64,000 nucleotides of DNA, taken from IMG/VR virus record IMGVR_UViG_3300033066_000360, positions 1 through 64,000 of that record; one strand, 5' to 3'. The translations under genes and the position numbers were made by a program. Every line of letters starts with the position of its first letter. Position 1 is the first letter of the stretch. The stretch comes from a virus. Taxonomy: Duplodnaviria > Caudoviricetes. The notes under the pieces were generated by a model. The model was not told the origin of the DNA. It made no database searches and worked only from the letters and a program-made list of their open reading frames with translations. Positions 13,347 through 34,021 of the stretch are shown here, piece after piece.

Positions 13347-14045
13347 ATGAGAACGTTTCTTGTGGGAGGTGCAGTTCGTGATAAGTTGATGGGCATCAAA
13401 CCCAAAGACTTGGACTTCGCTGTTGAGGCGGAGTCTTATGAGAAGATGAGGCAAGGTCTTTTGGATCAGGGATTCAAGATCTGGCTTGAGAGTCCTGCGT
13501 TCTTTACACTACGATGCTCTATTCCCAATGGGCATTGGGGCAGAGAGTACGGGAAAGACGCAGACTTTGTTCTGTGTCGGCGCGATGGGATCTACACCGA
13601 TGGGCGTAGGCCCGATAGCGTGGGAGTTGGGACCATTCTTGAAGATCTTAAGAGGCGAGACTTCACGATGAATGCAATGGCTATTGCGGAGGATGGCACA
13701 TTGCTTGATCCCCATGGCGGCAAGGGAGACTTGGAACTCAAGCTCATTCGCTTTGTGGGTAATCCTACTGAGCGTATCTTTGAGGATGGTTTGCGGGTGT
13801 TGAGAGCGCTCAGATTCAGCGTAACCAAAGAAATGAAATTCGCAGGAGCAACAAGGAGTGCTCTTGAGTCAGATGATGCTGCGCGTTGTTTGGCGCGAGT
13901 CGCAGACGAACGCATTTATGAGGAGTTGAAGAAGATGTTTGTCAAAACTCGCACATCCTTGTCCTTGCTGAATGAGTTCCCAAGGATTAGGCGTGTGTGC
14001 TTTCAGGGCAAGGTTCGCCTAATGCCCACAATGGAGACTGTATGA
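13347..14045 (+). CDS. cca: class II tRNA nucleotidyltransferase (CCA-adding enzyme-like), compact
   Basis: LVGGAVRD, DLDFAV, DLKRRDFTMNAMA, EDGLRVLRALRF, VADERIYEELKKM motifs. Confidence 0.9.
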   Translation: MRTFLVGGAVRDKLMGIKPKDLDFAVEAESYEKMRQGLLDQGFKIWLESPAFFTLRCSIPNGHWGREYGKDADFVLCRRDGIYTDGRRPDSVGVGTILEDLKRRDFTMNAMAIAEDGTLLDPHGGKGDLELKLIRFVGNPTERIFEDGLRVLRALRFSVTKEMKFAGATRSALESDDAARCLARVADERIYEELKKMFVKTRTSLSLLNEFPRIRRVCFQGKVRLMPTMETV

Positions 14046-15487: not shown

Positions 15488-17980
15488 GTGGCAAAGTTCC
15501 CCGATACGATGACGATTATCGTCAAAGATACGGAGCACGATGGCTTGGCCTTCTGGAAGTGGCCAAGGAAGAACTACTGCACGAATCTCTTCTTCCAACA
15601 CGGGATAGACCACATCTATCTCGATTTCGGAGCAATCAAGAATCGTGACGTGTGGGTTCCCAAGCATTGGGATCGGATTCTCAAGTGGTTGGGAGAGAAT
15701 GGATATGGGCGGTACGAGTTGCGTGGGCATGGTCAGAACGCAAAGACCGGACTCATGCTCATGATTAACAAGAAGCAGCGTCATATGTTCGAAGCGCATG
15801 AGGATGCAATCCGATTGGGCGGACTGTTCGGTGCGCCTCTTTGGTATGGAGTGCAGAAGCGGAAGGATGTGATCGTGCTTCTCGTTCCCGACAACTGGCC
15901 GGGATGCGGAGATGGATACGGTGGAGCGAAGTGGCTCAAGTCCCCATTCCAGTTCCGCGCAAGTGCCTTCATTGGCACGAAGTTCGAAGAGGGATTTGGT
16001 ATCAAGGGGCAAATCGGGAACACCGTATACATCCCTGATGGAATCGACATGGTTCTGCCAATTTCCACTGTGAAAGGCCCAACCTTGGCCCTACTCAAGA
16101 AGATGGTCAAGGAAGAGTCGAAGTACGGTGATATGGCGGAATATCCGGCGTTCAAATTGAACAATCTGCGGATTGGTTACATGGCGCAGGCGAACAAGGG
16201 CAACATGCGAATGGGCTACATGGTTGCTCAACACTGGCCCGATTACATCTATGATGCAATGCACGATGATGTAGCTGCCGCCGCAGAGCGTGTCCGCAAG
16301 TTCAAGGAGGATCCTCTGTCCTACCTTGAGAAGGAGCGTGTCAGGGACGAAAATGGGGAGTTGGTGGACTCCTATCTGCTAGAGGATGATGACGGTGAGG
16401 AGACACAGGGCATTGAAGCCATTCTGCCGCAATACGCAAAGTATGTGTTCCGGACTGGCGATAAGAGCCTGTTGTATACCAAGACAATTGCTCGCATCAT
16501 CCAGAATCAGATCGCGCAAATGTCGCAGGATGCGATTCTGACTGGTGGCAAGAAGCTGCTCAGTGCAGTTGCCATGCCCATTCCAGCCCAGATGTATGGC
16601 AAGGCGAAGCTTGGCGTGATCTATCTCCATCCGAAGATGATGGGACCGTTCCGCGCAACAGGTGTGGCTGGTGTTATCCGACACCCGTATCCGTCTGAAA
16701 ACGCTGGTGTAAGCGTGCGAGTTGAGGCGGATCCTAGCGTCCCACTCCTGAATGATGCGGGACAGGAAGTGCGGAATGTGTGCTTTATTCAGGAAACCTT
16801 GCGAGTTACCGGCGTGGACTTCGACATGGATTCGCTTGGTCTACTGTCTGTTCCTCACAAAGACTCGTGGGAGATGATGGTTCTGGATCGGTGGGCCATG
16901 TTGCCACCGATTGCTACTGGTGGTGAACGAGTAGCATCCAGCGTTCCGCCGAAAGACTACATGGAGGCGTGGTGCAACGCCGCTGCCGGAGACATTGGGC
17001 TTATCACGAACTTGAAGAGTCGGCTTGCTGCCGCTCGTCATTGGGTAGATAAGTCGTGGTGGCCTCTGATTCAGGAGACGGATGACAAGCTCTCTGTAGA
17101 ACTGCAAGCCGCCGTGGATCAGGCTAAGCATAACCAGAAACCCGACAAGCAGGTTATCAAGGATGCTCAGGAACTGTTGGTGAAATTGAACTCCATTCCC
17201 GAAGATAGCTCATACATCCGTCTGCTTGGCAACAAGCCGGAGCGATGGTGGGCGTTCAACAAGGCAGGGAAGTTCAATGCGCCAGATCCTGAGGCGTTGT
17301 CTCTGCGGACTCCACTCGGACGACATGTGCGGAAGCATCTTCCGCTCATTCCAAGCAAGGGGATGGAAGTATGGGCGAATAGCTTCTTCGTGAACAAGAT
17401 CAAGGAGCGCCCCGGTCCCGGCTATAACGCTGGAGTGGCGTTGTGGAAAGAGATGGGAACCCATCTGGAAGTTATTGCGAAAGCTGGCTTCTACTGGGAA
17501 GAGGCGAAGGAACGTCGCGCAGACGTTGGGAAGTGGTGGACTTCTGTATGGGCGGAGCTTGCAGAGGGAGATCAGACATTCCTTGAGCAAGCAACCAGTG
17601 CGATCTGGCGCTTGGCGTTCATGACAGACGAAAGCAATCAGAACCGGCTGTGGGGAGCGCATCTGCCCACGATCTTTCGGTTGCTTGAGCAGGATCTTCC
17701 GCGTCCGACAACTGGCGATCTTCCACCACCGGAGCCGATTGATGTTAAGGGCCGCTTGATTGGAATTGGTCTGAACAAGATCAAGTCTGATGCGATTCTT
17801 GAGGTTCGCGGACTTCGAAATGGCGTGAACGCGAGAGGAGAAGTCCATCAATATGTGCTGACTGACGACAATCCAGAAATGGGTTGGATGGTTGTTGACG
17901 CTACCTTGCCGGATGGATTCAAGGGGCGATTGCGTGTCAAGCCGCAATGGAATGCCTCTAGCTCGTTTCAAACTTGGTAG
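15488..17980 (+). CDS. single-subunit double-psi beta-barrel RNA polymerase (YonO / eukaryotic RdRP-like)
   Basis: Family motifs in correct order: GDGYG, PFQFR...GIKG, PISTVK, IRHP, DFDMD (codons 16817-16831), DIGLITN, AVDQAK. Confidence 0.8.
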   Translation: MAKFPDTMTIIVKDTEHDGLAFWKWPRKNYCTNLFFQHGIDHIYLDFGAIKNRDVWVPKHWDRILKWLGENGYGRYELRGHGQNAKTGLMLMINKKQRHMFEAHEDAIRLGGLFGAPLWYGVQKRKDVIVLLVPDNWPGCGDGYGGAKWLKSPFQFRASAFIGTKFEEGFGIKGQIGNTVYIPDGIDMVLPISTVKGPTLALLKKMVKEESKYGDMAEYPAFKLNNLRIGYMAQANKGNMRMGYMVAQHWPDYIYDAMHDDVAAAAERVRKFKEDPLSYLEKERVRDENGELVDSYLLEDDDGEETQGIEAILPQYAKYVFRTGDKSLLYTKTIARIIQNQIAQMSQDAILTGGKKLLSAVAMPIPAQMYGKAKLGVIYLHPKMMGPFRATGVAGVIRHPYPSENAGVSVRVEADPSVPLLNDAGQEVRNVCFIQETLRVTGVDFDMDSLGLLSVPHKDSWEMMVLDRWAMLPPIATGGERVASSVPPKDYMEAWCNAAAGDIGLITNLKSRLAAARHWVDKSWWPLIQETDDKLSVELQAAVDQAKHNQKPDKQVIKDAQELLVKLNSIPEDSSYIRLLGNKPERWWAFNKAGKFNAPDPEALSLRTPLGRHVRKHLPLIPSKGMEVWANSFFVNKIKERPGPGYNAGVALWKEMGTHLEVIAKAGFYWEEAKERRADVGKWWTSVWAELAEGDQTFLEQATSAIWRLAFMTDESNQNRLWGAHLPTIFRLLEQDLPRPTTGDLPPPEPIDVKGRLIGIGLNKIKSDAILEVRGLRNGVNARGEVHQYVLTDDNPEMGWMVVDATLPDGFKGRLRVKPQWNASSSFQTW

Positions 17981-18996: not shown

Positions 18997-20397
18997 ATGG
19001 CTTCAATCAACAAGCGTGTAGTGTCAAAGGCTCCTGTTACCCATAATGGTGGACAGGCAGATCGAATCAGCAATTATGAAGCGCTTAAGCGCTCTGTTAT
19101 GACTGCAATGCTCGGAGAGAATAGTTTCTACGAGAGTGGCGAATCTTTGAAGGTTCGCATCATGGAACTGTCCAAGAAAGTGGATGCCATGAAGGTTGCG
19201 GAATTGGCGGTAGATGCTCGTGAGAACGGGAAGCTTCGCCACGTACCGCTCTGGTTGGCAGTATGTCTTGCTCGTAGGAGCAAGGAAATCAAGATCGCGC
19301 CACTCTTGGCGCGGATTATTCGTCGCCCAGATGAGATGGGTGAGTTTCTTGCTCTTCTCAAGGAAGCAAATGGCAGGGAAGTTCGTAAGCCATCTGGCGG
19401 CATCAAGCTTCCCTCACAGGTCCGCAAGGGTTTGGCGCTTTCTTTTGCTGGATTCAATGAATACCAGCTTGCAAAGTGGAAGGGTAACAGGGATCAGATT
19501 CGTCTGATTGATGTTCTCCGCATGGTTCGCCCAGTTCCCGACAATGAAGACATGGCGGCTCTCTGGAAGCGTCTCAAGGATGGCAAGCTAGCCCCACCAG
19601 ACACTTGGGAGCGTCGTCTCTCTGCGGGAGAGAAGAAGGAAAAGGTATGGACTGATCTCCTAAACGCTCCAAAGGACAAGGGACTTGGATACATGGCTCT
19701 CCTCATGAATCTACGAAACATGAAGAATGCCGGTGTTCCGAAGGATCTTGTTGCGGGGCAGTTGATTCCACGCGCTCGGAAGTCGTGGGCACTTCCATTC
19801 AGGTTCATTTCTGCAAGGGATGCTGTTCCTGAATGGAAGGACATTATTGACCTTGCAATGCAGGAGTCGGTAAAGGGATTGCCGCGTTTGATGGGTAAGA
19901 CCATTCTTCTTGTGGATCTTTCAGGAAGCATGGTTGGTCCAATCGTTGGTAAGAGCAAGCTGGATCGCCGTGATGCGGCTTGTGCTCTTGGCATTCTGGT
20001 TGATGGTGTTTGCGAAAATGCTGCGATCTACGGATTCAGCACAAATATCGCTCTCGCCAAGGGGCCAAAGAAGAATGCCAATCTTGCAGGTTTCGAGCTG
20101 TTTGACGCTATCCAGCGCTCAAATAGTGGTGGAACCAACGTTGGCTACTGCGTTGAAGCGGCGATTCGTGAGAATCCAGACGCAGATCGAATCATTGTCA
20201 TCACGGATGAACAGTCCAGTGATCGTGTGTCTTCTCCAAAGATGCGTGGTTACATGGTGAATGTTGCCAGCTACCAGAACGGTGTTGGTTACGGCGGCAA
20301 TTGGACTCATATCAATGGGTTCAGCGAAAACGTTTTGAGCTTCATTTCTGCTCTTGAGAATGGAGTTATCACAGGCACAGAGGATGAGGAGGAATAA
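18997..20397 (+). CDS. rsr: Ro60 / TROVE-domain RNA-binding protein with vWA domain
   Basis: THNGG, LRHVPLWL, FNEYQLAKW, TWE, YMALLMNLRN, LPFRF, VDLSGSM, GGTN, RIIVITDEQ. Confidence 0.92.
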   Translation: MASINKRVVSKAPVTHNGGQADRISNYEALKRSVMTAMLGENSFYESGESLKVRIMELSKKVDAMKVAELAVDARENGKLRHVPLWLAVCLARRSKEIKIAPLLARIIRRPDEMGEFLALLKEANGREVRKPSGGIKLPSQVRKGLALSFAGFNEYQLAKWKGNRDQIRLIDVLRMVRPVPDNEDMAALWKRLKDGKLAPPDTWERRLSAGEKKEKVWTDLLNAPKDKGLGYMALLMNLRNMKNAGVPKDLVAGQLIPRARKSWALPFRFISARDAVPEWKDIIDLAMQESVKGLPRLMGKTILLVDLSGSMVGPIVGKSKLDRRDAACALGILVDGVCENAAIYGFSTNIALAKGPKKNANLAGFELFDAIQRSNSGGTNVGYCVEAAIRENPDADRIIVITDEQSSDRVSSPKMRGYMVNVASYQNGVGYGGNWTHINGFSENVLSFISALENGVITGTEDEEE

Positions 20398-23661: not shown

Positions 23662-23668
23662 TCTTCAT

Positions 23669-23742
23669 GCCCTTGTAGCTCATCGGACCAGAGCAGGAAG
23701 TTTCTACCTTCAAGGCAGGGGGTTCAATTCCCTCCAAGGGTA
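23669..23742 (+). tRNA. tRNA-Arg(TCT)
   Basis: Cloverleaf; loop TT-TCT-AC; no CCA. Confidence 0.85.
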
Positions 23743-23757
23743 TCCATAGGAGGATAT

Positions 23758-24187
23758 ATGAATTTGTATTGCGGAACAATTGTTGGTCGGATTAATGGCG
23801 ATGTAAAGAAAGTTGTTTCTTGCTATCGACTGGCAAAAACAGAAGAGAAAGCAAAGGCAAGCATAGCCAAAGATTACAAGGATCTTGATGAATTGTCTAT
23901 TTGCATAGATCTCATTGATCCTGAAGTAATTCGCGCTTGGTACGAGAAGGTTGTTATCGAGCCTATCGGGGAGGGTCTAGATGTTTCCTGATCCAGATGT
24001 ATGGCGGTGGGGTAGAGATGACTCCGAACCACCGGACAATCCGTATAAACATTTAGAAGAAGAAGACGATGAAGATGGTGATCCTGATCTTTGGGAGGAT
24101 GAAGAGGAGTTGATTGTGGAAGGTGAGCCAGTAAACGAAATGGATTGGCTTATTTCTTATGTCTCTCTAGTGCATCATCGTCTATAA
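23758..24187 (+). other. two small hypothetical genes (23758-23991, 23981-24187 acidic)
   Basis: AGGAGG RBS; overlapping junction. Confidence 0.5.
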
Positions 24188-24207
24188 TGTTTCCAATCGG
24201 AAACAGT

Positions 24208-24290
24208 GCAACCATGGTGAAATGGCAGTCACAGCAGGCTTAGAACCTGCCGCCCTAAAAAGCGTGGGGGTTCAAGTCCCTCTGGTTGTA
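24208..24290 (+). tRNA. tRNA-Leu(TAG)
   Basis: GCAGG-CTTAGAA-CCTGC; long variable arm. Confidence 0.9.
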
Positions 24291-24401
24291 TATGCAGAGC
24301 AGGCACTCCTGTAGACACGGCGCTATGCAGAAGGTGGCTATACCGGTAGGATCCTACTGGGACGAGCGGAAGCGAGAGATACCTCCCATTCTCTCTTAAA
24401 T

Positions 24402-24483
24402 GCAAGTATGGCGGAATGGCATACGCGGGAGCCTGAGAAGCTCTGCTCGAAAGGGCGTGAAGGTTCGAGTCCTTCTATTTGCA
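24402..24483 (+). tRNA. tRNA-Leu(GAG)
   Basis: GGAGC-CTGAGAA-GCTCT; long variable arm. Confidence 0.9.
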
Positions 24484-24582
24484 CTGCATTCGATGGTGTC
24501 TGCGCGGAGTCCGGAATCATCTGGCAGAACTAGAGAACCGGCCCACAACATGGCCAAGTTAGTGGGGAATCCGTAAATTCAT

Positions 24583-24655
24583 GGAGAAGTAGCCCAACGG
24601 CAGAGGCAACAGTCTCAAGAACTGTTTAGTGAGAGTTCGAATCTCTCTTTCTCTA
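24583..24655 (+). tRNA. tRNA-Leu(CAA), short variable loop
   Basis: ACAGT-CTCAAGA-ACTGT. Confidence 0.85.
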
Positions 24656-24722
24656 CTGACCGCTCCTTGTGGTTTCTTTTTGTTTTGTAGCTTTTTGTTT
24701 TCCACAAGGGGATGGTCTCCAT

Positions 24723-24797
24723 GCAAGTGTGAGGCAACCGGCAGACCTGATACACTTAAAATGTGTCGTTCTATGGGTTCAAATCCCATCACTTGTA
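24723..24797 (+). tRNA. tRNA-Leu(TAA), short variable loop
   Basis: ATACA-CTTAAAA-TGTGT. Confidence 0.85.
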
Positions 24798-24814
24798 TCT
24801 AATATGAATATAAT

Positions 24815-24888
24815 GGGGAAATGCGCTAATGGTTAACGCGAACAATCTTATAAATTGTTGATTGAACGTTCAAGTCGTTCTTTCCCTA
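24815..24888 (+). tRNA. tRNA-Ile(TAT)
   Basis: ACAAT-CTTATAA-ATTGT. Confidence 0.85.
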
Positions 24889-25083
24889 CTACCACAAAAG
24901 AAGAACTTTTTTGTGTATATACGGTCAAGGTGGCTAATGTGTTGGTTGATAGCTGCGAGAGTCTGGCGAGCACTTTCAATTGGCATCCACTACGTGGCGT
25001 ATGTCGGACGGTGAGCATGGTCATGTGTTGACCCAGAAGTACAGCATGAATCAGCCGTGGGAAGCCGATAGATTCCCAAATAC

Positions 25084-25156
25084 ACACTGTTAACTCATCG
25101 GTCAGAGTGCCTTTCTTACAAATAGGAAGCAGGGGGTTCAATTCCCTCACAGTGTA
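25084..25156 (+). tRNA. tRNA-Val(TAC)
   Basis: Acceptor ACACTGT/ACAGTGT; loop CTTACAA. Confidence 0.88.
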
Positions 25157-25207
25157 TAGATGGTTAGTAGATATATCGCGCGTTAGGTATCGAAAGCCAT
25201 CTTTCAT

Positions 25208-25280
25208 GCTCTATTGGGCAAGCGGCCAAGCCACCTCTCCTTCAAAGAGGCAATCGTGGGTTCGAATCCCACATAGAGTA
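25208..25280 (+). tRNA. tRNA-Glu(TTC)
   Basis: CCTCT-CCTTCAA-AGAGG. Confidence 0.88.
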
Positions 25281-25378
25281 CTGTTCCTAGTGAGTCCAAG
25301 GTTCGGTAAGGAACACATTCACTTTCGGTTGAAAGTGGTGTAAAGCAGGAATCCGACTTCTCACGTTTCCTGCGCTAT

Positions 25379-25450
25379 GCTTCGGAAGCCGAAGGGATAG
25401 GCGCTACTCTGTCTAAGTAGTTGAAGTGGGTTCAAATCCCATCCGGGGCG
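25379..25450 (+). tRNA. tRNA-Asp(GTC)
   Basis: CTACT-CTGTCTA-AGTAG. Confidence 0.88.
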
Positions 25451-25557
25451 CTAAATAGTAGGAGGATCAAAATAACGCTTGTTCTCGGTCTAAAATGACC
25501 AACCACTACTATGATGAAGATGTATTACTTGTAAGAGTGTCAACAATACGTCTTTAT

Positions 25558-25631
25558 GCTTCTTTCGGCAAGCGGCTTAAGCCACTTGGTTCTCAACCAA
25601 GAGATCGCCGGTTCGAATCCGGCAAGAAGCA
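25558..25631 (+). tRNA. tRNA-Glu(CTC)
   Basis: CTTGG-TTCTCAA-CCAAG. Confidence 0.9.
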
Positions 25632-25731
25632 CTTGGAGTGATGGATATAACTCCAGCGTAACAGCCATGGATGAAGCGTGTCCACGCATAGATTCTAGGT
25701 ATCATGTAGAATACGTGAAGTTCTACAAAGT

Positions 25732-25802
25732 AGCAGGGTAGAGTAGCGGCCACTCACCGGCCTCATAAGCCGTTTACACGGGTTCGATTCCCGTTCCTGC
25801 CA
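25732..25802 (+). tRNA. tRNA-Met(CAT), possibly initiator-like
   Basis: CGGC-CTCATAA-GCCG; 1:72 mismatch (A:C) as in initiator tRNAs. Confidence 0.82.
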
Positions 25803-25871
25803 TCACTATCTCTATGGCGCACATGAGATAGCGTCCCGTAAACGGGGGACCGTACGTGAACTGGTCATTAT

Positions 25872-25945
25872 CTGGGTATAGCTCAATCTGGAAGAGCACT
25901 TGCTTTGGGAGCAAGACGTTAGGGGTTCAAATCCCTTTACCTAGA
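25872..25945 (+). tRNA. tRNA-Pro(TGG) copy 1
   Basis: CTTGC-TTTGGGA-GCAAG. Confidence 0.9.
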
Positions 25946-26098
25946 CTCAGTTCATGTTTGGATTGGCTCGCCCGATTAAGCTACTAGTGGCTGTAATCGT
26001 ACCCCTCAACAGGGTAAAAGCGTCCCCTTCTGAATCCCCTGAACTGCCGTAAGAAAACTTGTTGAGAGTTTTCGTGGAGTACGTTAAAAGCTCCATAT

Positions 26099-26173
26099 AT
26101 AGGTGTATATCAGTCTGGTCAGATTGCTCCCCTTGGAAGGGAGTGGGCACAGGTTCAAATCCTGTCACCTATA
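26099..26173 (+). tRNA. tRNA-Pro(TGG) copy 2
   Basis: CTCCC-CTTGGAA-GGGAG. Confidence 0.87.
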
Positions 26174-26275
26174 CTCTGATGAATTTCGCTGAATCGTCTA
26201 AGGACGAAGGAGCGGGAAATCGAAGACGTAATCAATGTGTCATAGCATCGAGAGGCATACGATAAGTGCCAAAAC

Positions 26276-26358
26276 GGAAGGACGGCAATAGGCGTAGTAC
26301 ACTGTCTTGAAAACAGAAAGCCGTAAAAGGCTTGTGGGTTCGACTCCCACTCCTTCCT
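26276..26358 (+). tRNA. tRNA-Ser(TGA)
   Basis: CTGT-CTTGAAA-ACAG; long variable arm AAGCC/GGCTT. Confidence 0.85.
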
Positions 26359-26461
26359 CTGGATCCCTTGCTTTGGGCATGTAGCTACTAGGCGGCGGCA
26401 AGAAGTGGTCTGGATACATCTAGCTAATATAAGCTCTATGGCCCAATATGGTGTATCTTAT

Positions 26462-26547
26462 GGAAAGGTGACGGAATCTGGTAATCGTTCCTCTTTGCTA
26501 AAGAGTGAGTCCGTAAGGACACGCAGGTTCAAATCCTGTCCTTTCCT
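26462..26547 (+). tRNA. tRNA-Ser(GCT)
   Basis: CTCT-TTGCTAA-AGAG; long variable arm. Confidence 0.88.
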
Positions 26548-26551
26548 CTGT

Positions 26552-26624
26552 GCCGCTCTAGCTCAAATGGTAGAGCACTAGTCTGAAGAACTGGGGGCAA
26601 TGGGATCGTTACCCATGGGCGGCT
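26552..26624 (+). tRNA. tRNA-Phe(GAA)
   Basis: CTAGT-CTGAAGA-ACTGG; atypical T loop ATCGTTA. Confidence 0.8.
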
Positions 26625-26629
26625 TGTAT

Positions 26630-26713
26630 GAGCAGAAGTCAGATACGGTTTGCTTGTGACTGTCTGTAAAACAGTTCCCTTCGGGGGTGGGGGTTCGAAT
26701 CCCTCTCTGCTCA
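26630..26713 (+). tRNA. tRNA-Tyr(GTA)
   Basis: ACTGT-CTGTAAA-ACAGT; variable arm CCC-TTCG-GGG. Confidence 0.87.
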
Positions 26714-26714
26714 C

Positions 26715-26743
26715 TTGACAAATCTCCAAATGGAGAGTATTGT
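26715..26743 (+). promoter_or_regulatory. sigma70 promoter inside the tRNA array
   Basis: TTGACA-17 bp-TATTGT, just upstream of tRNA-Asn. Confidence 0.65.
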
Positions 26744-26753
26744 GTTTGTATGT

Positions 26754-26826
26754 TCCCGTGTAGCTCAGGGGTAGTAGCAGCGCACTGTTAATGCGCCAGT
26801 CGTTGGTTCAAATCCAGCCATGGGAG
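26754..26826 (+). tRNA. tRNA-Asn(GTT)
   Basis: CGCA-CTGTTAA-TGCG. Confidence 0.9.
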
Positions 26827-26860
26827 CCTATTTCCGACTGGAAATAAATAGGAGGAATAA

Positions 26861-27292
26861 ATGAAGAGGTTACTTGTGTTATGGGTCGCGCTCGGCTTGA
26901 TGTTTGCTGCATGTGGTGCGCCTACTGGCGATAGAAGCTATGGTGTTGCCAAGAGGCTTGGAGAGGGGCGGCATATCGTGTCGAATGTCGAGAAGCTCAA
27001 CAATGGCATGAATGTGATCTGGTTCTTTGGAGAGAACGATTACGTTTACTGTACGTTTGATGACAAATTGGCTGCAATGGCTCGTGCAATCAAGAACGAT
27101 CCGGGTCCAAATGACGGAATTGCTCTGTATGAATACAGAGATTTCATCACTGGAGATCCTGAGTTTGGGCTAGATCCATCTGGTTATTACTGGTGGTCTA
27201 CTTGTGGGGTTGGAATTACTGCCACATACAAGTCCAAGCTAATGTCCATCAAGCCATTGCGTCCACTAGTGAATGAAGTGGTTTTGAGATAA
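26861..27292 (+). CDS. putative lipoprotein
   Basis: MKRLLVLWVALGLMFAAC-G signal peptide and lipobox; AGGAGG RBS. Confidence 0.65.
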   Translation: MKRLLVLWVALGLMFAACGAPTGDRSYGVAKRLGEGRHIVSNVEKLNNGMNVIWFFGENDYVYCTFDDKLAAMARAIKNDPGPNDGIALYEYRDFITGDPEFGLDPSGYYWWSTCGVGITATYKSKLMSIKPLRPLVNEVVLR

Positions 27293-27325
27293 CTAAATAG
27301 TCGGGATGTTACAATCCCGGCATAC

Positions 27326-27399
27326 GCTAATGTAGCTCAATCCGGCAGAGCAACTCCTTTGTAACGAGAAGGTTGGAGGTTCAATTCCTCTCATTAGCT
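27326..27399 (+). tRNA. tRNA-Thr(TGT)
   Basis: Acceptor GCTAATG/CATTAGC; loop TTTGTAA; imperfect anticodon stem. Confidence 0.85.
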
Positions 27400-27403
27400 T
27401 TGT

Positions 27404-27458
27404 GGGTCTGGATGTAAAGGCTGTCCTAGGCGTGTCGGTTCAACTCCGATCAGATCCA
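27404..27458 (+). ncRNA. 55-nt tRNA-like RNA without an anticodon arm, G3-U70/A73
   Basis: Acceptor GGGTCTG/CAGATCC-A and T arm GTCGG-TTCAACT-CCGAT with only 23 nt between them. Confidence 0.6.
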
Positions 27459-27464
27459 CTAAAT

Positions 27465-27537
27465 GGGGACACATGTACCAAGGGGGCGACTGATACTTGC
27501 AATATCGGTGTGAGGAGTTCGATTCTCCTTGTTTCCA
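27465..27537 (+). tRNA. tRNA-Ala(TGC)
   Basis: CTGATA-CTTGCAA-TATCGG; G3-U70 pair. Confidence 0.85.
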
Positions 27538-27541
27538 CTAT

Positions 27542-27614
27542 GTATGCAGACTCAAACGGTGATGAGAACACTCTGATAAGGTGTCCGTGTGAGGTTCAAT
27601 TCCTCTTGCATACA
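27542..27614 (+). tRNA. tRNA-Ile(GAT)
   Basis: ACACT-CTGATAA-GGTGT. Confidence 0.82.
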
Positions 27615-27637
27615 CTACAGCCCTACCGGGCTAATAA

Positions 27638-27709
27638 GCACATATAGCTCAGTGGAAGAGTTAGCGCCTTCGAAGCGCGGGGTCGGGAGTTCGAATCTCT
27701 CTATGTGCT
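27638..27709 (+). tRNA. tRNA-Arg(TCG)
   Basis: GCGC-CTTCGAA-GCGC. Confidence 0.88.
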
Positions 27710-27797
27710 CTGGGAGAGGGACAAGCGGTGTTTGACTGTTCCTCCTAGCGGTAAGAGATCGTGTTCGGCGTAAGTTGTTCGGTCCCTCTCCCTTTAT

Positions 27798-27870
27798 GCG
27801 CGTGAAGCTCAACGGAAGAGCATTTCCCTGCGAAGGAAAAGGTTTAAGGGTTCAATTCCCTTGACGCGCT
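27798..27870 (+). tRNA. tRNA-Arg(GCG)
   Basis: TTTCC-CTGCGAA-GGAAA. Confidence 0.85.
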
Positions 27871-28015
27871 TAGCGTAAGGATGCATACCTGCGCTAACCT
27901 TGGGTAGTGAAGGGTTGTGCACTACTGCTATCTGGTGACGCTACAATACCAGCGCCTCTTGCCGACGAAAGACGCAAGGAGTTCTTGCTGGTTCTCTCCA
28001 AAAGAATCAGGTGAT

Positions 28016-28088
28016 GCGGATATGGCTCAGTTGGTAGAGCAGGATCTTGCCAAGATTCAGGTCGCGGGTTCAAGTCCCGCTATTCGCT
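28016..28088 (+). tRNA. tRNA-Gly(GCC)
   Basis: GGATC-TTGCCAA-GATTC. Confidence 0.92.
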
Positions 28089-28161
28089 TGAGCGGTTCGA
28101 CTTTTAGTTTTCCAAAGGTAAATCTAGGTCGTCCGCTCTTTTATGTTAAAAGGAGGTCGGA

Positions 28162-28680
28162 ATGAAGAATATCTTTGTCATCAGCGATACGCACTTCGGT
28201 CACGAGCTTATGACCACCGTACTGACAGATCAAGGCAAGCGTCTCCGGCCTTGGAATACGACTGAGGAGATGGATGAAGTTCTCATTGCCAATTGGAATT
28301 CTGTTGTTACTCCAAGTGACAAGGTTTACCATCTGGGAGACGTATTCTTCCCCCGTAAAGGGAGAATGCTCTTGTCTCGACTCAATGGAGATAAGGTTTT
28401 GATTCGTGGGAACCATGATGGTCATCCAATCAAGGATTACCTAATGGGATTCAGGGACATCCGGGCCTTACATGTGTTGGACGGAGTAATCATGACTCAT
28501 GTTCCAATCCATGAACAGAGTCTTTCCCGCTGGAAAGGCAACATTCATGGACATTTGCACGAGCATCGAATTCTTGATCGGCGTGGATTGCCTGATCCGC
28601 GTTATACTACTGTCTGTGTGGAACACATCAACTACACTCCTAAAGAGTGGTCGGTGGTTCGTAGTGAACTGGTAGCTTAG
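28162..28680 (+). CDS. calcineurin-like metallophosphoesterase
   Basis: SDTHFGH, YHLGDV, RGNHD, THVP, NIHGHLH. Confidence 0.9.
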   Translation: MKNIFVISDTHFGHELMTTVLTDQGKRLRPWNTTEEMDEVLIANWNSVVTPSDKVYHLGDVFFPRKGRMLLSRLNGDKVLIRGNHDGHPIKDYLMGFRDIRALHVLDGVIMTHVPIHEQSLSRWKGNIHGHLHEHRILDRRGLPDPRYTTVCVEHINYTPKEWSVVRSELVA

Positions 28681-28738
28681 TGGCTAAAGCAGCATGCTCT
28701 TAACATGCCTATCGTGGGTTCAAATCCCACCCGGTTCT
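28666..28738 (+). tRNA. tRNA-Lys(CTT)
   Basis: GCATG-CTCTTAA-CATGC; 5' end overlaps the phosphoesterase stop codon. Confidence 0.88.
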
Positions 28739-28739
28739 T

Positions 28740-28811
28740 GTACTCGTGGTGTAATGGTTAGCACGATAGGCTGTGGCCCTGTTAGAGCCGGTTCAAATCC
28801 GGTCGAGCACT
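28740..28811 (+). tRNA. tRNA-His(GTG)
   Basis: ATAGG-CTGTGGC-CCTGT. Confidence 0.85.
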
Positions 28812-28827
28812 TAAATAGGAGGATTAA

Positions 28828-29615
28828 ATGGAAACAATGTGGGTTATTAAGCGGGATCGAGCCATTGAAGGTTCATCCGATATTATCTTTATTTGCAAGA
28901 CGGAACATACAGCAAGGTATCTTGTTGAAATACTGAAAGGAGCCGAGCAAAAAGCTCGCAAGTTCAATAAGACTCAATCTGTTACCATTGATAAGACTTC
29001 ATGGACAGTTAGTAGAGGAGATTCGTTTGAATACGACAGTTATCCAGTTTATTAGAGATATAGTTCTTGTGTTTGTTATCACTCTCCCGTTCTTTGCTAT
29101 CGGGCTTCTAATACAAATGGTTCATAAATTCAGGAGGAAATAATGGAAATTACAAATACAACCTACATCATTACATTCATCACAAAGGGTGGGTCTTATA
29201 ACACCACAATGTTTGATCCTGTTGATGGTGGTTATCAAGCAATTGATAAGTTTATCGCTGCCTACATGAAGGCAAACCCAAGTATTGTTGAACATACAAA
29301 GAGAATGGTCATTGGAACACCGGTTTTTAGAGAGCGTGCCATTGGAAAGGACTTCAATGATGTTTATGAGGTGGTCAAGTGAAAACAGCGGTGCAGTATC
29401 TCAATGCCGCAGATCGAGTATTCAAAATACAACAGGACTACAGGTTTGTCGGAGTTGACTATGAGCGAAGAGTTGGTCTAATCACAGAGGCAAAGAATCT
29501 TGCCGCCGAGTTTGGACTAGATCAGTCCATATACTTGGCGAATTGTACTCCAGAAGAGTATTTCCTTGGATTGGAAAGACTTCTTGGGAGAGCGGCAGTA
29601 GACGCTGTAGAATAA
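28828..29615 (+). other. small hypothetical genes (28828-29055, 29143-29382, 29379-29615)
   Basis: AGGAGG RBS before the first two; overlapping junction for the third. Confidence 0.55.
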
Positions 29616-29624
29616 AAGAATAGT

Positions 29625-29696
29625 GGGTTTGTAGCTCAATGGCAGAGCGGGAGACTTTTAACCTCCGCGTCGTAGGTTCGATTCCTACCAGACTCA
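29625..29696 (+). tRNA. tRNA-Lys(TTT)
   Basis: GGAG-A-CTTTTAA-C-CTCC. Confidence 0.88.
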
Positions 29697-29712
29697 TATA
29701 AAATTGAATAAA

Positions 29713-29784
29713 GGGTGTGAAGCGTCATGGCGATGCACTGAACTCCAAATCCAGCAACAGCAGGTTCGATTCCTGCCACGCCCG
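29713..29784 (+). tRNA. tRNA-Trp(CCA)
   Basis: CTGAA-CTCCAAA-TCCAG; acceptor GGGTGTG/CACGCCC. Confidence 0.87.
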
Positions 29785-29887
29785 TAGAGACTAGTGGAGG
29801 TTTCCAACCATCACGAATGCTCGAAGAGAAGCTTGGCTCTTAATAATTCAAGCAGTTCCGTGGGGTCAGCTTCAAGACTCCACAAAT

Positions 29888-29960
29888 GGCTACTTGGCCA
29901 AGTGGAAAGGCGTCTCCCTGCAAAAGAGATACCGCGCTGGTTCGATTCCAGCAGTAGCCT
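29888..29960 (+). tRNA. tRNA-Cys(GCA)
   Basis: TCTC-C-CTGCAAA-A-GAGA; U73. Confidence 0.88.
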
Positions 29961-30121
29961 CTTGGGGTGGATGAGAGCGAAAGCTTAAGGATCCTCAACT
30001 GTATATCCAGAACAGTGATTATGGACGTTTCCGAAGCCCGATAGCTCGGACGAGAGCCGTTGCTCGTAATAATGTCGGGAGTTGTTATGGGACCATTCTC
30101 TCTAAAATGAACGGCCCATAC

Positions 30122-30192
30122 GCGAATATGGCCGATAGGCTAGGCTCCACGCCTCCAACGTGGCTAGACGGGTTCGATTCCTGTTATTCGCT
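30122..30192 (+). tRNA. tRNA-Gly(TCC)
   Basis: CCACG-CCTCCAA-CGTGG. Confidence 0.85.
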
Positions 30193-30411
30193 TTTGCCGC
30201 ACATGTTCAGAGTCAATTCCACACCTAGGCAATATGGATGCGATATGACATGCTTACGCAATCCTTCTCTCTCTTCGGATCAGTAAGTAGGGACGGACAC
30301 CAGCACCGGCAAGGCTAACGCTGGATTTTGCTAGTTACTACAAATTAGCTCTTATCCTTTCACTGTTGTAAAGGACGCTTTGGCCATTGTGCAACGTTAA
30401 CAATGGCACAT

Positions 30412-30483
30412 GATCTAGAAGCTCAATGGACGAGCAAGATTTTCCTAAAATCTGGGCTGTGGGTTCGAGTCCCATCTAGATCT
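30412..30483 (+). tRNA. tRNA-Arg(CCT)
   Basis: AGATT-TTCCTAA-AATCT. Confidence 0.9.
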
Positions 30484-30555
30484 TAGCCAACCGCGTGGTT
30501 GGTGAAGAGGGTAGAGGTTTTTATTCAGGGTTATCTTTCCAGCTGCCCGTGGTGA

Positions 30556-30849
30556 TTGAGCCTTTACCCTCTTAGTCTTTTTCAGGAGGAACTTATGAAT
30601 GACAGAACATGGGCATTTCTAGAAGCAATCAAGAACATGGCGCTTAGCATTATGCCGCTATATGTCGCGTTTGAGAATGATAAATTCCGCTTAGATCTTG
30701 TCGTAGAGATGAGACAAATGGAACAAACCCTCAAAAAGCTACATGCCAGTATCAAGAAGTCGGGGACTTGGGGGGCATCCGAGAGGGAACAGTACATTAC
30801 TATCGACAAGAGAATGGATGAGATACTGTATATCGGTGAAAGGGGCTAG
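30556..30849 (+). CDS. hypothetical protein
   Basis: Likely start at MNDRTW after GGAGG; its stop codon overlaps the 5' strand of mini-tmRNA A. Confidence 0.5.
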   Translation: MSLYPLSLFQEELMNDRTWAFLEAIKNMALSIMPLYVAFENDKFRLDLVVEMRQMEQTLKKLHASIKKSGTWGASEREQYITIDKRMDEILYIGERG

Positions 30850-30911
30850 AAAGGCATTCGACAGCGAGAGTGGGTTCAAACGGCCCAGTCTTATACCCGA
30901 TACTTTCGTTG

Positions 30912-31008
30912 GGGGAAGAAGGGTTTCGACGGTAAGTGATGGCATAAATGGACTTGTCTAAAACCCAGATGATCTTATCGGACGCAGGTTCAACTCCTGC
31001 CTTCTCCA
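30912..31008 (+). ncRNA. ssrA: mini-tmRNA B (97 nt, tRNA-like domain only)
   Basis: GGGGAAG-AAGGGTTTCGAC 5' end; P2 GGTAAG/CTTATC; 3' end GGACGCAGGTTCAACTCCTGCCTTCTCCA closely matches the tmRNA 3' consensus; G3-U70. Confidence 0.72.
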
Positions 31009-31412
31009 TATAAAGAGGAATATGTTGCAATTATTTTAAGCGCAAATTCATACGCATCTTTAGCGCGTATTCCTGATTTTGGGGGCTTTGTCCAAAGCTC
31101 AAGATTATCTGGAGAATTGTCATCACGAATGCCATTCTTATGATGAACCGTTTCTTCCGGAAGCAGATATCTTCCAATCATGGATTCCATGACCAAGATG
31201 TGTTCAAAAATATAATGTCCCTTTCGGGGATGTCCGGGTGGACGAAGAATGAGCTTGTAGCCCTTTTTATGCAAAGATCCTTTGCTTTTCTTTCTCTGAA
31301 AACTGGCTCTTTCTAGGTTAAAGCATCTAATACACGACTTGGCTCTAATTCCGCATTCCTGTCCACAAATCGGACAAGTCTTTTTGCGATTCCAACTCTT
31401 TTGTTTATTCAT
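30990..31412 (-). CDS. HNH homing endonuclease with N-terminal zinc finger, antisense to the RNA array
   Basis: CPICG...CIRC, EHILVMESMIGR, VHHKNGIRDDNSPDNLELW. Confidence 0.9.
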   Translation of the reverse strand: MNKQKSWNRKKTCPICGQECGIRAKSCIRCFNLERASFQRKKSKGSLHKKGYKLILRPPGHPRKGHYIFEHILVMESMIGRYLLPEETVHHKNGIRDDNSPDNLELWTKPPKSGIRAKDAYEFALKIIATYSSLYGEGRS

Positions 31413-31473
31413 ATAGGGAATTATACACGGATTAATGGGTTTGATTCCCCGCTAGTCCACTAATAGGAGGAAC

Positions 31474-31995
31474 ATGATCTTTGAGGTGGAGATCCGCAAG
31501 AAGGTCTTTGAATTCGGATATGTCCGAGTAGAAGCCAAGAATGAAGAGGAGGCTCTTCAAGTTGCCCAAGACATTGCAGATGGTGATGAAGATGGGATTG
31601 AATGGGATTCCATGACGGAAGCAATCGAAGACTCTCTAGAAGCAAGAAATCCTGCCGAGTGGACTAACAACGTCATGATTGGCGACAGAATGGCTGTCCC
31701 GGTCCTGCAAGAAAACGGCTCCTATATATTGGAGTAAGGAGGAGTGATGATCGAGTTTCTTAAACGCAAGGGCTTTGCTCTTGTTCCTGAGTGTGGCCCA
31801 GATTATTGGCACAAGACATTTCCAATCGGAAATATTGTCTGGAGAATCAGCGTCTCTTTTGACGATTGGGGAGTGCAATTCATCTCTATTGGCGGGACCG
31901 ATAGGGGATGTGTCACTCTTTTCAGGGAAGACATGAAGCTTCTTCTACCCATTCTTCGAACAATGACCCTTCTCATGGGAAAGAATGAAGTGTAG
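31474..31995 (+). other. two hypothetical genes (31474-31737, 31744-31995)
   Basis: AGGAGG RBS. Confidence 0.55.
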
Positions 31996-32004
31996 AATGG
32001 CCGT

Positions 32005-32077
32005 AGTCCTATGGTCAAATGGTATGACGGAATGCTCTGAACATTCAAGTCGTTGGGTTCAATTCCCCGTGGGACTG
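32005..32077 (+). tRNA. tRNA-Gln(CTG)
   Basis: GAATG-CTCTGAA-CATTC. Confidence 0.85.
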
Positions 32078-32228
32078 CTATAGGAGATAAATATGTTTCA
32101 ATGTATCGGAAGTGATGCGTATTGCTTGGCTGCAATCAAGCTTACGGAAAACATCTTTTGGGGCGTGGTTCTTGTAGTGGTTCTCTTCGGAGTTGGCTAC
32201 TGGTTCTACAGACTCATAAAGGATTTGT

Positions 32229-32301
32229 AGTCTCTTAGCTCAATTGGCAGAGCGGAACACTTTGAATGTTTAGGTTAGTGGTTCAAGTCCACTAGGGACT
32301 G
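32229..32301 (+). tRNA. tRNA-Gln(TTG)
   Basis: GAACA-CTTTGAA-TGTTT; acceptor AGTCTCT/AGGGACT. Confidence 0.88.
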
Positions 32302-32329
32302 TAAATAGGAGGAAATATGTATAAGATCT

Positions 32330-32707
32330 ATGGAGAAATGCACAGAGCCTTCCCTTATTAATTATGATGATCGCTTTAAGCTTTACCATCTGAGTGATGA
32401 CTTTGCATGGTTTACGACCGGAGATCCATACGAGTATTGTTCTACGGAGGACGTTGGTCGGGGAAGGGATCCAATAATTCCCAAGGATTCTCAAGATGAG
32501 TTCTTGAGAATTGCCTTTGATGTTCCATATGGAATATTCTTTTCAGAACGCAATACAATGGATTGTGTCAATGGAACTGCCAATTGGCTTGAAACGGAGG
32601 ATGAAACAGAAGTGCTTAGGGGGAAGGATATCCCAGTAAGCAAGTTTTGCGGGGCCATTCTTGCCAGCGGTGGTGAGCTTTGGTTCCCATTGGGGAAGCA
32701 ACTTTAG
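32330..32707 (+). CDS. hypothetical protein
   Basis: Similar in-window to 49269-49670 (AWFTTGD..Y vs AYFTTQ..W; ASGGELWFP vs KSGGMVYLP). Confidence 0.55.
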   Translation: MEKCTEPSLINYDDRFKLYHLSDDFAWFTTGDPYEYCSTEDVGRGRDPIIPKDSQDEFLRIAFDVPYGIFFSERNTMDCVNGTANWLETEDETEVLRGKDIPVSKFCGAILASGGELWFPLGKQL

Positions 32708-32715
32708 GGAGGACT

Positions 32716-33699
32716 ATGGGATTAGCATATATTGGAAAAGTGATTCAAGTTCGCCCAATTGAGGGTGCAGACAGGATCCATTCCGTTCAAGTTGTGTGTG
32801 GTAAGGGTGGGATTTGGAATGGTGTTGCAAGTAAAGAAATAGTAGAAGGCAATCTTGTAGAAGTTTATCTTCAAGACGCAATTCTTCCAGATGGAGAAAG
32901 ATTCGACTTCATGGATAAATATCACCGTAGAGTATCTATGAAGAGATTCAAGGGCGCTCCTAGCGATTGTTTGATTATGTCTTTGGCAGATAGTACTGCT
33001 GATTTACTTGCTAAAAGCGCGCCTCTTTGGGTGGGATTCGACTTGACCGATCTTCTTGGCGTTAAGAAGTACGAGAAAGAGGTTATCTATGGACAGGGAG
33101 AGATTATGGGCGGATTCACTACTCTCCTTCCCAAGACAGATGAACCCAACTTCCAGTCTGTTCCAGATATCGTAAGGGAAACTTTTGCGTATCCATGGAG
33201 TGCAACTCTTAAGTACGATGGAACTTCTTGTACTATTCTAAAGACCGATGAGGGTGAATTGCAGGTCTTTTCTCGAAATATGCGCATTCGAGAGGGATCC
33301 AATAATTACTGGCGTATCGTAGATAAATATGATTTACGAAATGCCATTCTCCCCGGAGAAGCTTTCCAGATGGAAATTGTCGGACCTGGAATTCAGAAGA
33401 ATCCCCTTGGTCTCAAGGAGATTGATGCTTTTGTCTTCAATGCCTTTTGGGAATGGAAACCGGTCCATTATGTTAGGAATTTCCAGAGAATATTGATTCC
33501 GGCAGCAGAGGAAGTGTGTCGATATGGCCCAAGAGATGTTCCAAGCAACGAAGAGCTATGGAAACTTGCAGAAAGAACATATAAGAATGGGACTATTGCC
33601 GAAGGGGTTGTCATTCGGCCACAGCATGCAGACTTTCCAAGAAGCACAATGGGAGAACGGCTGTCTTTTAAGGTAATCAATCTTCTTTACGGGAAATAA
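32716..33699 (+). CDS. RNA ligase (Rnl2 / DRB0094 family)
   Basis: N-terminal IRPIEGADRI-type OB module, PKTDE, motif I KYDGTS, VFSRN, MEIVGPGIQKNP, motif IV EGVV, motif V FKVIN. Confidence 0.9.
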   Translation: MGLAYIGKVIQVRPIEGADRIHSVQVVCGKGGIWNGVASKEIVEGNLVEVYLQDAILPDGERFDFMDKYHRRVSMKRFKGAPSDCLIMSLADSTADLLAKSAPLWVGFDLTDLLGVKKYEKEVIYGQGEIMGGFTTLLPKTDEPNFQSVPDIVRETFAYPWSATLKYDGTSCTILKTDEGELQVFSRNMRIREGSNNYWRIVDKYDLRNAILPGEAFQMEIVGPGIQKNPLGLKEIDAFVFNAFWEWKPVHYVRNFQRILIPAAEEVCRYGPRDVPSNEELWKLAERTYKNGTIAEGVVIRPQHADFPRSTMGERLSFKVINLLYGK

Positions 33700-33700
33700 T

Positions 33701-34021
33701 ATGGGCTGGATTGGTGTTGACTTAGATGGAACACTTGCGGAATATGGGGGCTGGAAGGGGCCAAACAACATCGGCCTGCCGGTTCCTAAGATGTTAAAGC
33801 GTGTCCAGAAATGGCTGAAGGAGGGCGCAGACGTAAGAATCTTCACGGCCAGAGCCTATATTCCTGAGCAGATTCCGCCGGTTCAGGCGTGGTGCGAGAA
33901 GCATCTTGGTGTGATTCTTCCCGTCACGAATGTAAAGGATTTCGGTATGTCCGAACTTTGGGATGACCGCGCCATACAGGTTATTCCGAATACCGGCGAA
34001 AGAGTGGACGGAAAGATATGA
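33701..34021 (+). CDS. HAD-superfamily phosphatase (PNK 3'-phosphatase-like)
   Basis: IGVDLDGTL, IFTAR, LWDDRA. Confidence 0.8.
   Translation: MGWIGVDLDGTLAEYGGWKGPNNIGLPVPKMLKRVQKWLKEGADVRIFTARAYIPEQIPPVQAWCEKHLGVILPVTNVKDFGMSELWDDRAIQVIPNTGERVDGKI

Follow-up and report, generated by a model that had tools for sequence, protein, structure and literature searches.

What a phage could gain from an RNA gene that carries the two ends of a tmRNA and hardly anything between them is the question raised by positions 30912–31008 (+) of the window, the 64,000-nucleotide stretch of DNA that was analysed here. Trans-translation is the main bacterial pathway of ribosome rescue and protein tagging and serves as a drug target. 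A natural RNA by which a phage disturbs or short-circuits this pathway would offer a compact tool, and would hint at how phages protect their proteome. The IMG/VR virus record, of which the window makes up the first 64 kb, has 84,153 bases and is put at 65% completeness; its source is a lytic-looking phage of ca. 130 kb. The 97-base gene, referred to below as allele B of a mini-tmRNA, holds only the tRNA-like domain of tmRNA (TLD).

Compared with the Rfam tmRNA family RF00023, allele B scores 57.7 bits (gathering cut-off 47, E ~1e-21). It spans model positions 1–374, with ca. 33 nt standing in place of 306 model positions, and the 5′ and 3′ halves of the TLD both align with high posterior probability. 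The acceptor stem forms 7 of 7 pairs, G3:U70 included, and is followed by A73. The stretch is thereby confirmed as a real gene for the alanine-accepting, tRNA-like end of tmRNA, and is built from the following parts:

30912–31008 (+): mini-tmRNA allele B, with RF00023 match, 7-bp acceptor, G3:U70, A73 and covariation in 6 alleles
30912–30918 (+): 5′ acceptor strand GGGGAAG, pairing with CUUCUCC at 31001–31007; discriminator A at 31008
30919–30930 (+): D-loop analogue AAGGGUUUCGAC with the tmRNA-type GGnUUCGAC motif, whose alignment to the Rfam consensus has high posterior probability
30930–30980 (+): P2 arm, consisting of a 7-bp P2, stem 2 and an apical loop
30930–30936 with 30974–30980 (+): P2, CGGUAAG/CUUAUCG, 7 bp
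30937–30973 (+): interior enclosed by P2, 37 nt
30940–30942 with 30965–30967 (+): stem 2, UGG/CCA
30943–30964 (+): A/U-rich apical loop, 22 nt
30980–31000 (+): GGAC junction and T-arm GCAGG-UUCAACU-CCUGC, 3 of 5 T-stem pairs being compensatory among alleles

A preliminary description had read the same positions as a 97-nt tmRNA devoid of an mRNA-like domain, and this reading stands, with RF00023 over its cut-off, no pseudoknots and no conserved tag frame. The tmRNA-type 5′ end, the P2 helix with 37 nt inside it and the G3-U70/A73 alanine identity were likewise described correctly. The 3′ CCA end was not, for the “CCA” that had been read is C71-C72-A73; the next bases are TAT and a CCA tail is not encoded. 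Of the covariance searches that the description had proposed, the one with the Rfam tmRNA model gave the match above, while ARAGORN called 33 tRNAs in the window, made no call for allele B and found no tag. Nor does allele B look like one half of a two-piece tmRNA. Its TLD halves are contiguous, in standard 5′-to-3′ order and closed by P2; the permuted tmRNA model RF04321 (one of the two-piece families, with RF01849–51) reaches only 15.7–20.7 bits against a cut-off of 47, whereas phages Moby and Rb1, as positive controls, give 118.6 and 103.4 bits. The search for a separate coding piece was likewise negative, since the standard tmRNA model run on the phage’s own record matches only the tRNA array.

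Other identities can be set aside. A tRNA-Ala gene is rejected, as ARAGORN does not call one and the best family of the Rfam clan is tmRNA, not tRNA. A full tmRNA is rejected as well, the mRNA-like domain (resume codon, tag ORF, in-frame stop) being absent and the interior too small at 37 nt, with no conserved frame. Pseudoknots PK1–PK4 are missing along with the 306 model positions, and the comparative structure is a plain stem-loop arm. An alternative full-length MFE pairing of GGGUUU with AAACCC (−29.7 vs −25.4 kcal/mol for the canonical fold) does not exist in the other alleles. The thermodynamic z-score of allele B is unremarkable by itself (−1.66), and what supports a structured RNA is the fit to the covariance model together with covariation among homologues, not that score. 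Within the window, the closest thing to an antisense target for the 37-nt interior is a 10-mer, no more than chance would give. Allele B has no conspicuous promoter or terminator of its own, and no family could be assigned to the ORFs that overlap it (30743–30961 +, 30800–31030 −, 30739–30945 −).

The gene is not confined to the window. Uninterrupted mini-tmRNAs of 97–99 nt occupy the same syntenic site in related uncultured phages, where the allele directly follows the orthologue of an 84-aa ORF and the syntenic loci contain no HNH gene. The alleles are given here with their Rfam tmRNA scores, which were obtained for L069 and L066 only:

L069:8249–8345: uninterrupted allele, 97 nt, 56.2 bits
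L072:252–348: uninterrupted allele, 97 nt
L074:1131–1227: uninterrupted allele, 97 nt
L066:8249–8347: uninterrupted allele, 99 nt, 54.0 bits
L076:666–763: uninterrupted allele, 98 nt, with identical copies in L077 and L078

The flanking ORFs in the window, one of 84/97 aa at 30556–30849 and one of 87 aa at 31474–31737, have orthologues in Logan and JGI contigs, and the proteins of the syntenic relatives are 60–95% identical to those of the window. In most relatives an extra ORF of 91–94 aa separates the mini-tmRNA from the 87-aa ORF (L069:8361–8645, L066:8370–8645, L076:779–1057); the window and L074 are without it, and there the same RBS is fused directly to the 87-aa ORF. Against isolate phages, blastn with the locus and tblastn with the portal gave no match, and for the RNA ligase and the vWA protein all matches were distant. 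Relatives in IMG/VR, sought through the RNA ligase and a 703-aa protein, were not found, nor did pattern scans of IMG/VR return close copies of allele B or of A-type alleles.

Six distinct alleles, folded together with RNAalifold, yield a 7-bp acceptor, a P2 of 7–9 bp, a second stem of 3–4 bp and a 5-bp T-arm. Paired cells make up 95.3% of this structure (83.7 ± 1.6 in shuffles), and 10 of 25 pairs are changed on both sides, as compared with 3.8 ± 1.4 in shuffled alignments, none of 500 shuffles reaching the observed number; controls in which partners were slid showed double-sided changes in at most 2 pairs. Compensatory changes occur in each of the four helices (acceptor, P2, stem 2 and T-arm), with double-sided changes at 3 P2 pairs, 2 stem-2 pairs and 3/5 T-stem pairs, and acceptor positions 4 and 5 of allele B are compensatory relative to those of allele A, the resident allele described below. 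What does not vary across the lineage is the G3:U70 pair, A73, the 7-bp length of the acceptor, the GG.nUUCGAC motif and GGAC. The apical loop is A-rich and 19–22 nt long in the lineage alleles, its AAA and GU being invariant. The allele series is a conserved, structured RNA gene and neither a chance match nor a decayed remnant.

In the window itself this site has a more complicated history, with a second allele on both sides of allele B:

30843–30910 (+): 5′ part of allele A, 68 nt, with acceptor strand GGGCUAG, AAAGGCAUUCGAC and the complete arm; 68/68 nt identical to the start of L069:8249–8345
30990–31412 (−): HNH endonuclease gene, 140 aa (Pfam HNH_3, E 1.6e-9; phrog_20891, E 8.5e-27)
31429–31459 (+): 3′ part of allele A, with mutated T-arm GGAUUAAUGGGUUUGAUUCCCCG, acceptor CUAGUCC and discriminator A; intact relatives read GGACCGGGGUUCGAUUCCCCGCUAGUCCA

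Allele B and the antisense HNH gene together form an insert of ca. 517 nt (30912 to ~31428) between the halves of allele A. The last 19 nt of the HNH gene overlap the T-arm and acceptor of allele B, and its stop codon lies inside the T-loop of B. The resident allele A was thus split at the junction of P2 and T-arm by an insert that brought its own intact allele. A group I intron between the halves was considered and rejected, no intron family matching in 30500–31700 at E up to 5. Beside the insertion, the T-arm of allele A shows clustered substitutions and a 2-nt insertion, altering GGACCGGGGUUCGAUU to GGAUUAAUGGGUUUGAUU, which leaves a T-stem of 3 bp and a T-loop of UUUGAUU. Allele A agrees with L069 at every one of its first 68 nt, while the adjacent ORF shares only ~59% protein identity.

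The arm of allele B is identical to that of L076 at ca. 45/49 nt (counted by eye), and the L076 allele joins this arm to an A-type 5′ TLD and to a third kind of T-arm. Allele B is thus not foreign to the lineage, and the locus is a mosaic of recombining modules. The HNH enzyme could target the A-type T-arm, with allele B as the resistant allele (A-type DNA reads GGACCGGGGTTCGATT, B-type DNA GGACGCAGGTTCAACT). Homologues of the HNH protein are at most 52% identical among near-full-length matches, lie in unrelated contexts and have no link to mini-tmRNAs. The disruption and replacement of allele A argues that the mini-tmRNA is needed, and if the homing reading is true, the cassette event would have proved this need in nature, in the manner of a complementation experiment.

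Two features of the surroundings are of immediate relevance:

13317–14042 (+): tRNA nucleotidyltransferase of the CCA-adding type (PF01743, 85–86 bits, above cut-off)
23668–32302 (+): array of 33 tRNA genes, all on the same strand, containing the mini-tmRNA (ARAGORN and Rfam)

None of the 33 array tRNA genes encodes CCA, and the nucleotidyltransferase is likely the maturase for these CCA-less tRNAs and for the mini-tmRNA. Contig L026 has a homologue of the enzyme at a distance of 1.6 kb from a mini-tmRNA of its own. No SmpB gene is present in the 84-kb record, itself ~65% complete. The array is flanked by genes for an Rnl-type RNA ligase (32680–33699), a PNK/HAD-like protein (33701–34021) and a metallophosphoesterase (28162–28680), all on the + strand, which together resemble a tRNA-repair kit. 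A Ro60/TROVE protein with a vWA domain is encoded at 18997–20397 (+; Pfam TROVE, E 1.8e-14), and a homologue of it adjoins a full-length tmRNA in a 375-kb phage contig, L014. Just upstream of tRNA-Ala, at 27404–27458 (+), is a 55-nt RNA with a T-arm and no anticodon arm, whose Ala-type acceptor (GGGUCUG/CAGAUCC) has G3:U70 and A73 and which matches the Rfam tmRNA model weakly, at 18 bits. It is kept at 52/55 nt in L069:3941–3995, where one T-stem pair has changed from G-C to A-U by compensation; possibly this is another TLD-like RNA, smaller still.

TLD-only RNAs also occur well outside this lineage. Pattern scans of IMG/VR, JGI metagenomes and GTDB genomes, constrained solely by the 5′ motifs of the TLD and by the T-arm and leaving the 3′ acceptor strand unspecified, gave 29 unique TLD-only sequences of 63–108 nt (mode 77–82 nt). 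Every one of the 29 has G3:U70 and A73, and the full 7-bp acceptor is formed in 28, with 13 different combinations at acceptor positions 5–7; the T-stem pair that the patterns left free is complementary in 29/29. Several of these RNAs sit in phage tRNA arrays. ARAGORN misses or miscalls them, and standard annotation with this program overlooks mini-tmRNA genes. The examples of ~100 nt are all above the Rfam cut-off, and those checked beyond the lineage score 65–70 bits on the tmRNA model. The RNAs from uncultured phages and metagenomes (L018, 107 nt and in a tRNA array; L024, 103 nt; L039, 99 nt; the 77–82-nt class) have the TLD frame in common with allele B, whereas their interiors cannot be aligned with its lineage (MAFFT, L024 and L039). 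Folded separately, the arms of L024 and L039 look similar to that of allele B, which is a resemblance only. In the commonest class the arm is shorter than in allele B and consists of P2, an A-rich internal loop and a 3–4-bp hairpin. A further mini-tmRNA of ~97 nt, at L062:5842–5939 (−) on a 115-kb IMG/VR contig of an AT-rich phage, scores 68.9 bits on the Rfam tmRNA model and has a single AU helix of ~14 bp as its arm.

Matches of the TLD query in the cultured phages Moby and Rb1 were rejected as mini-tmRNAs, being full permuted tmRNAs. These are unannotated two-piece genes, in Stenotrophomonas phage Moby (L063; MN095772.1, ~68,012–68,400) and Xanthomonas phage Rb1 (L064; PQ569993.1, ~16,300–16,605); the Moby annotation places a “hypothetical protein” CDS, CPT_Moby_106, over the permuted tmRNA.

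The unit that enters the ribosomal A site in trans-translation is the alanyl-TLD bound to SmpB, an established mechanism (PMC3985003). Judged by its motifs, the mini-tmRNA appears to keep all that is needed for this entry step and nothing that is needed for the next one. The function proposed here, to which we give about an even chance, is that allele B acts as an alanine-charged competitor of the host tmRNA for SmpB and stalled ribosomes and so suppresses ssrA tagging. The RNA would be transcribed together with the tRNA array, trimmed in the manner of a tRNA and completed with CCA, probably by the phage nucleotidyltransferase. Such maturation is plausible, given that a CCA-adding enzyme is encoded and that the array tRNAs are without CCA. 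Host AlaRS would then charge the RNA with alanine by way of G3:U70 and A73, and SmpB of the host would bind it, a host partner being assumed because the phage record has no SmpB gene. The complex of Ala-RNA, SmpB and EF-Tu would compete with host tmRNA for SmpB and stalled ribosomes, and nascent proteins, those of the phage among them, might be spared the ssrA degradation tag.

Charging probably matters, for the alanine identity is strictly kept while acceptor stems change by compensation. Pure titration of SmpB does not explain this conservation, since the published inhibition by a similar molecule is, according to Hudson et al., independent of charging. The conserved identity argues for charging-dependent models over a passive sponge, although it would not separate a competitor from a tag-free rescuer and fits productive ribosome entry as well. 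Two considerations tell against competition with the host tmRNA: the conserved A-rich arm plays no part in the proposed mechanism, and a block of rescue could cost the phage ribosomes.

Productive rescue is the alternative closest to the proposed competitor, and one that we regard as possible but clearly less probable. Here the alanyl-mini-tmRNA with SmpB would receive the nascent chain of a stalled ribosome, and the resulting peptidyl-Ala-RNA would be set free by drop-off and Pth, by ArfB or by ArfA/RF2; ribosomes would be recycled, and the protein would gain one alanine and no degron. The alanine identity set and the perfect acceptor, kept through compensatory changes, argue for aminoacylation as this requires, the persistence of CDS-less tmRNAs in jakobid mitochondria and some plastids, with an assumed rescue role (PMC11915505), offers a parallel, and a phage with 33 tRNAs, a CCA enzyme and an RNA ligase is evidently invested in translation. 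However, neither an RF-1/ArfB-type GGQ domain nor Pth was found in the 84-kb record (~65% complete), where host factors could serve instead, and the sole experimental precedent is one of inhibition and not of rescue (PMC4131195; PMC11915505). Joined with the homing reading, rescue leads to a composite that we consider only tentatively: the mini-tmRNA would be an alanine-charged, catalytic, tag-free rescuer in place of a stoichiometric SmpB sponge, and its gene both target and cargo of HNH homing, the cassette carrying a cleavage-resistant replacement allele. A role outside trans-translation is unlikely. An Ala-type tRNA-like RNA might be a decoy for defence nucleases or sensors of the host that target tRNAs, or might act as donor or competitor towards enzymes recognising Ala acceptor arms, in keeping with neighbours such as the RNA ligase, the PNK/HAD-like gene, phosphoesterases and the Ro60/TROVE protein, and with the 55-nt RNA with its Ala-type acceptor that is conserved in the same array; but the elbow motifs that bind SmpB (GGnUUCGAC, the GGAC junction and P2) are kept in all alleles and would be needless for a generic alanine decoy.

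That the DNA has no function, being what is left of a phage's decayed full-length tmRNA or having merely travelled with the HNH cassette, is very improbable. Allele B does adjoin a homing-type HNH gene inside a broken paralogue, and no promoter or terminator of its own stands out, yet its four helices covary across 6 alleles, uninterrupted alleles occupy the same site in relatives free of the HNH gene, and the truly broken allele A, with its 3-bp T-stem and UUUGAUU T-loop, provides the contrast. We give least credence of all to a minimal coding tmRNA or a two-piece half. The 37-nt interior does contain both GCA UAA, which would make a one-codon frame 5 nt after P2, and GUC UAA, which would place a stop at the resume codon, and tags of 2 aa occur in some bacteria (PMC11915505). 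Against such frames, the allele with the closest arm, L076, reads GGA UAA and GUUCAAAA, A-type alleles have nothing of the kind, and a distance of 5 nt from the closed P2 would be too short to reach the decoding centre, as far as can be told from published tmRNA–ribosome structures; a two-piece half is opposed by the contiguous TLD halves, the lack of a coding piece and at most 20.7 bits on RF04321 (cut-off 47).

RNAs of this kind have been published before. The list of Hudson, Lau and Williams has an entry “Mycobacterium phage DS6A (TLD only)” (PMC4131195). It was missed by the preliminary description, which had proposed an SmpB sponge or a tag-free rescue RNA and had named the MLD-less tmRNAs of jakobid mitochondria as a precedent; for the sponge, the DS6A case is a precedent in print. 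The DS6A RNA is tmID 11587 of the tmRNA Website. According to both papers, which cite Mao et al., 2009, a similar molecule is a strong inhibitor of tmRNA in E. coli and may work by titrating SmpB (PMC4131195; PMC11915505), and the inhibition is stated by Hudson et al. to hold with or without a chargeable RNA (PMC4131195). The DS6A case is taken up again by Nawrocki et al. (2025), together with that of the jakobids and with CDS-less forms from plastids (PMC11915505). In the full-text literature, no further paper treating phage TLD-only tmRNAs was found. Allele B therefore adds a member from a new lineage to a kind already known. New here are the syntenic allele series, the structure backed by covariation, the split and replaced allele, and a CCA enzyme in the absence of SmpB. 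Beyond the single published case, syntenic and covarying alleles fix the structure and show selection on alanine identity.

Like the DS6A RNA, allele B is phage-encoded, keeps the TLD with little beyond it, is closed by a short P2 arm, and has no coding part, tag frame or pseudoknots; both are proposed to act on host SmpB and trans-translation. Compared with the published accounts of the DS6A RNA, allele B differs in its 97 nt, its covariation-supported two-tier arm (P2, stem 2 and A-rich loop) and the lack of an encoded CCA, and it belongs to an unrelated phage, within a 33-tRNA array and with mosaic alleles, one of which is carried on an HNH cassette. With the bacterial one-piece tmRNA (RF00023) it shares the G3:U70/A73 acceptor, GGnUUCGAC, GGAC, the T-arm and P2a, while PK1–PK4, the resume codon, the tag ORF and the stop are absent, as are 306/374 model positions. 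The MLD-less tmRNAs of jakobid mitochondria and the CDS-less ones, of ~65 bp, in Mallomonadaceae plastids are also reduced to the tRNA-like part (PMC11915505). Those, however, are the organelle’s own and only tmRNA, working with a cognate SmpB, whereas allele B is viral, in a cell that has a full tmRNA.
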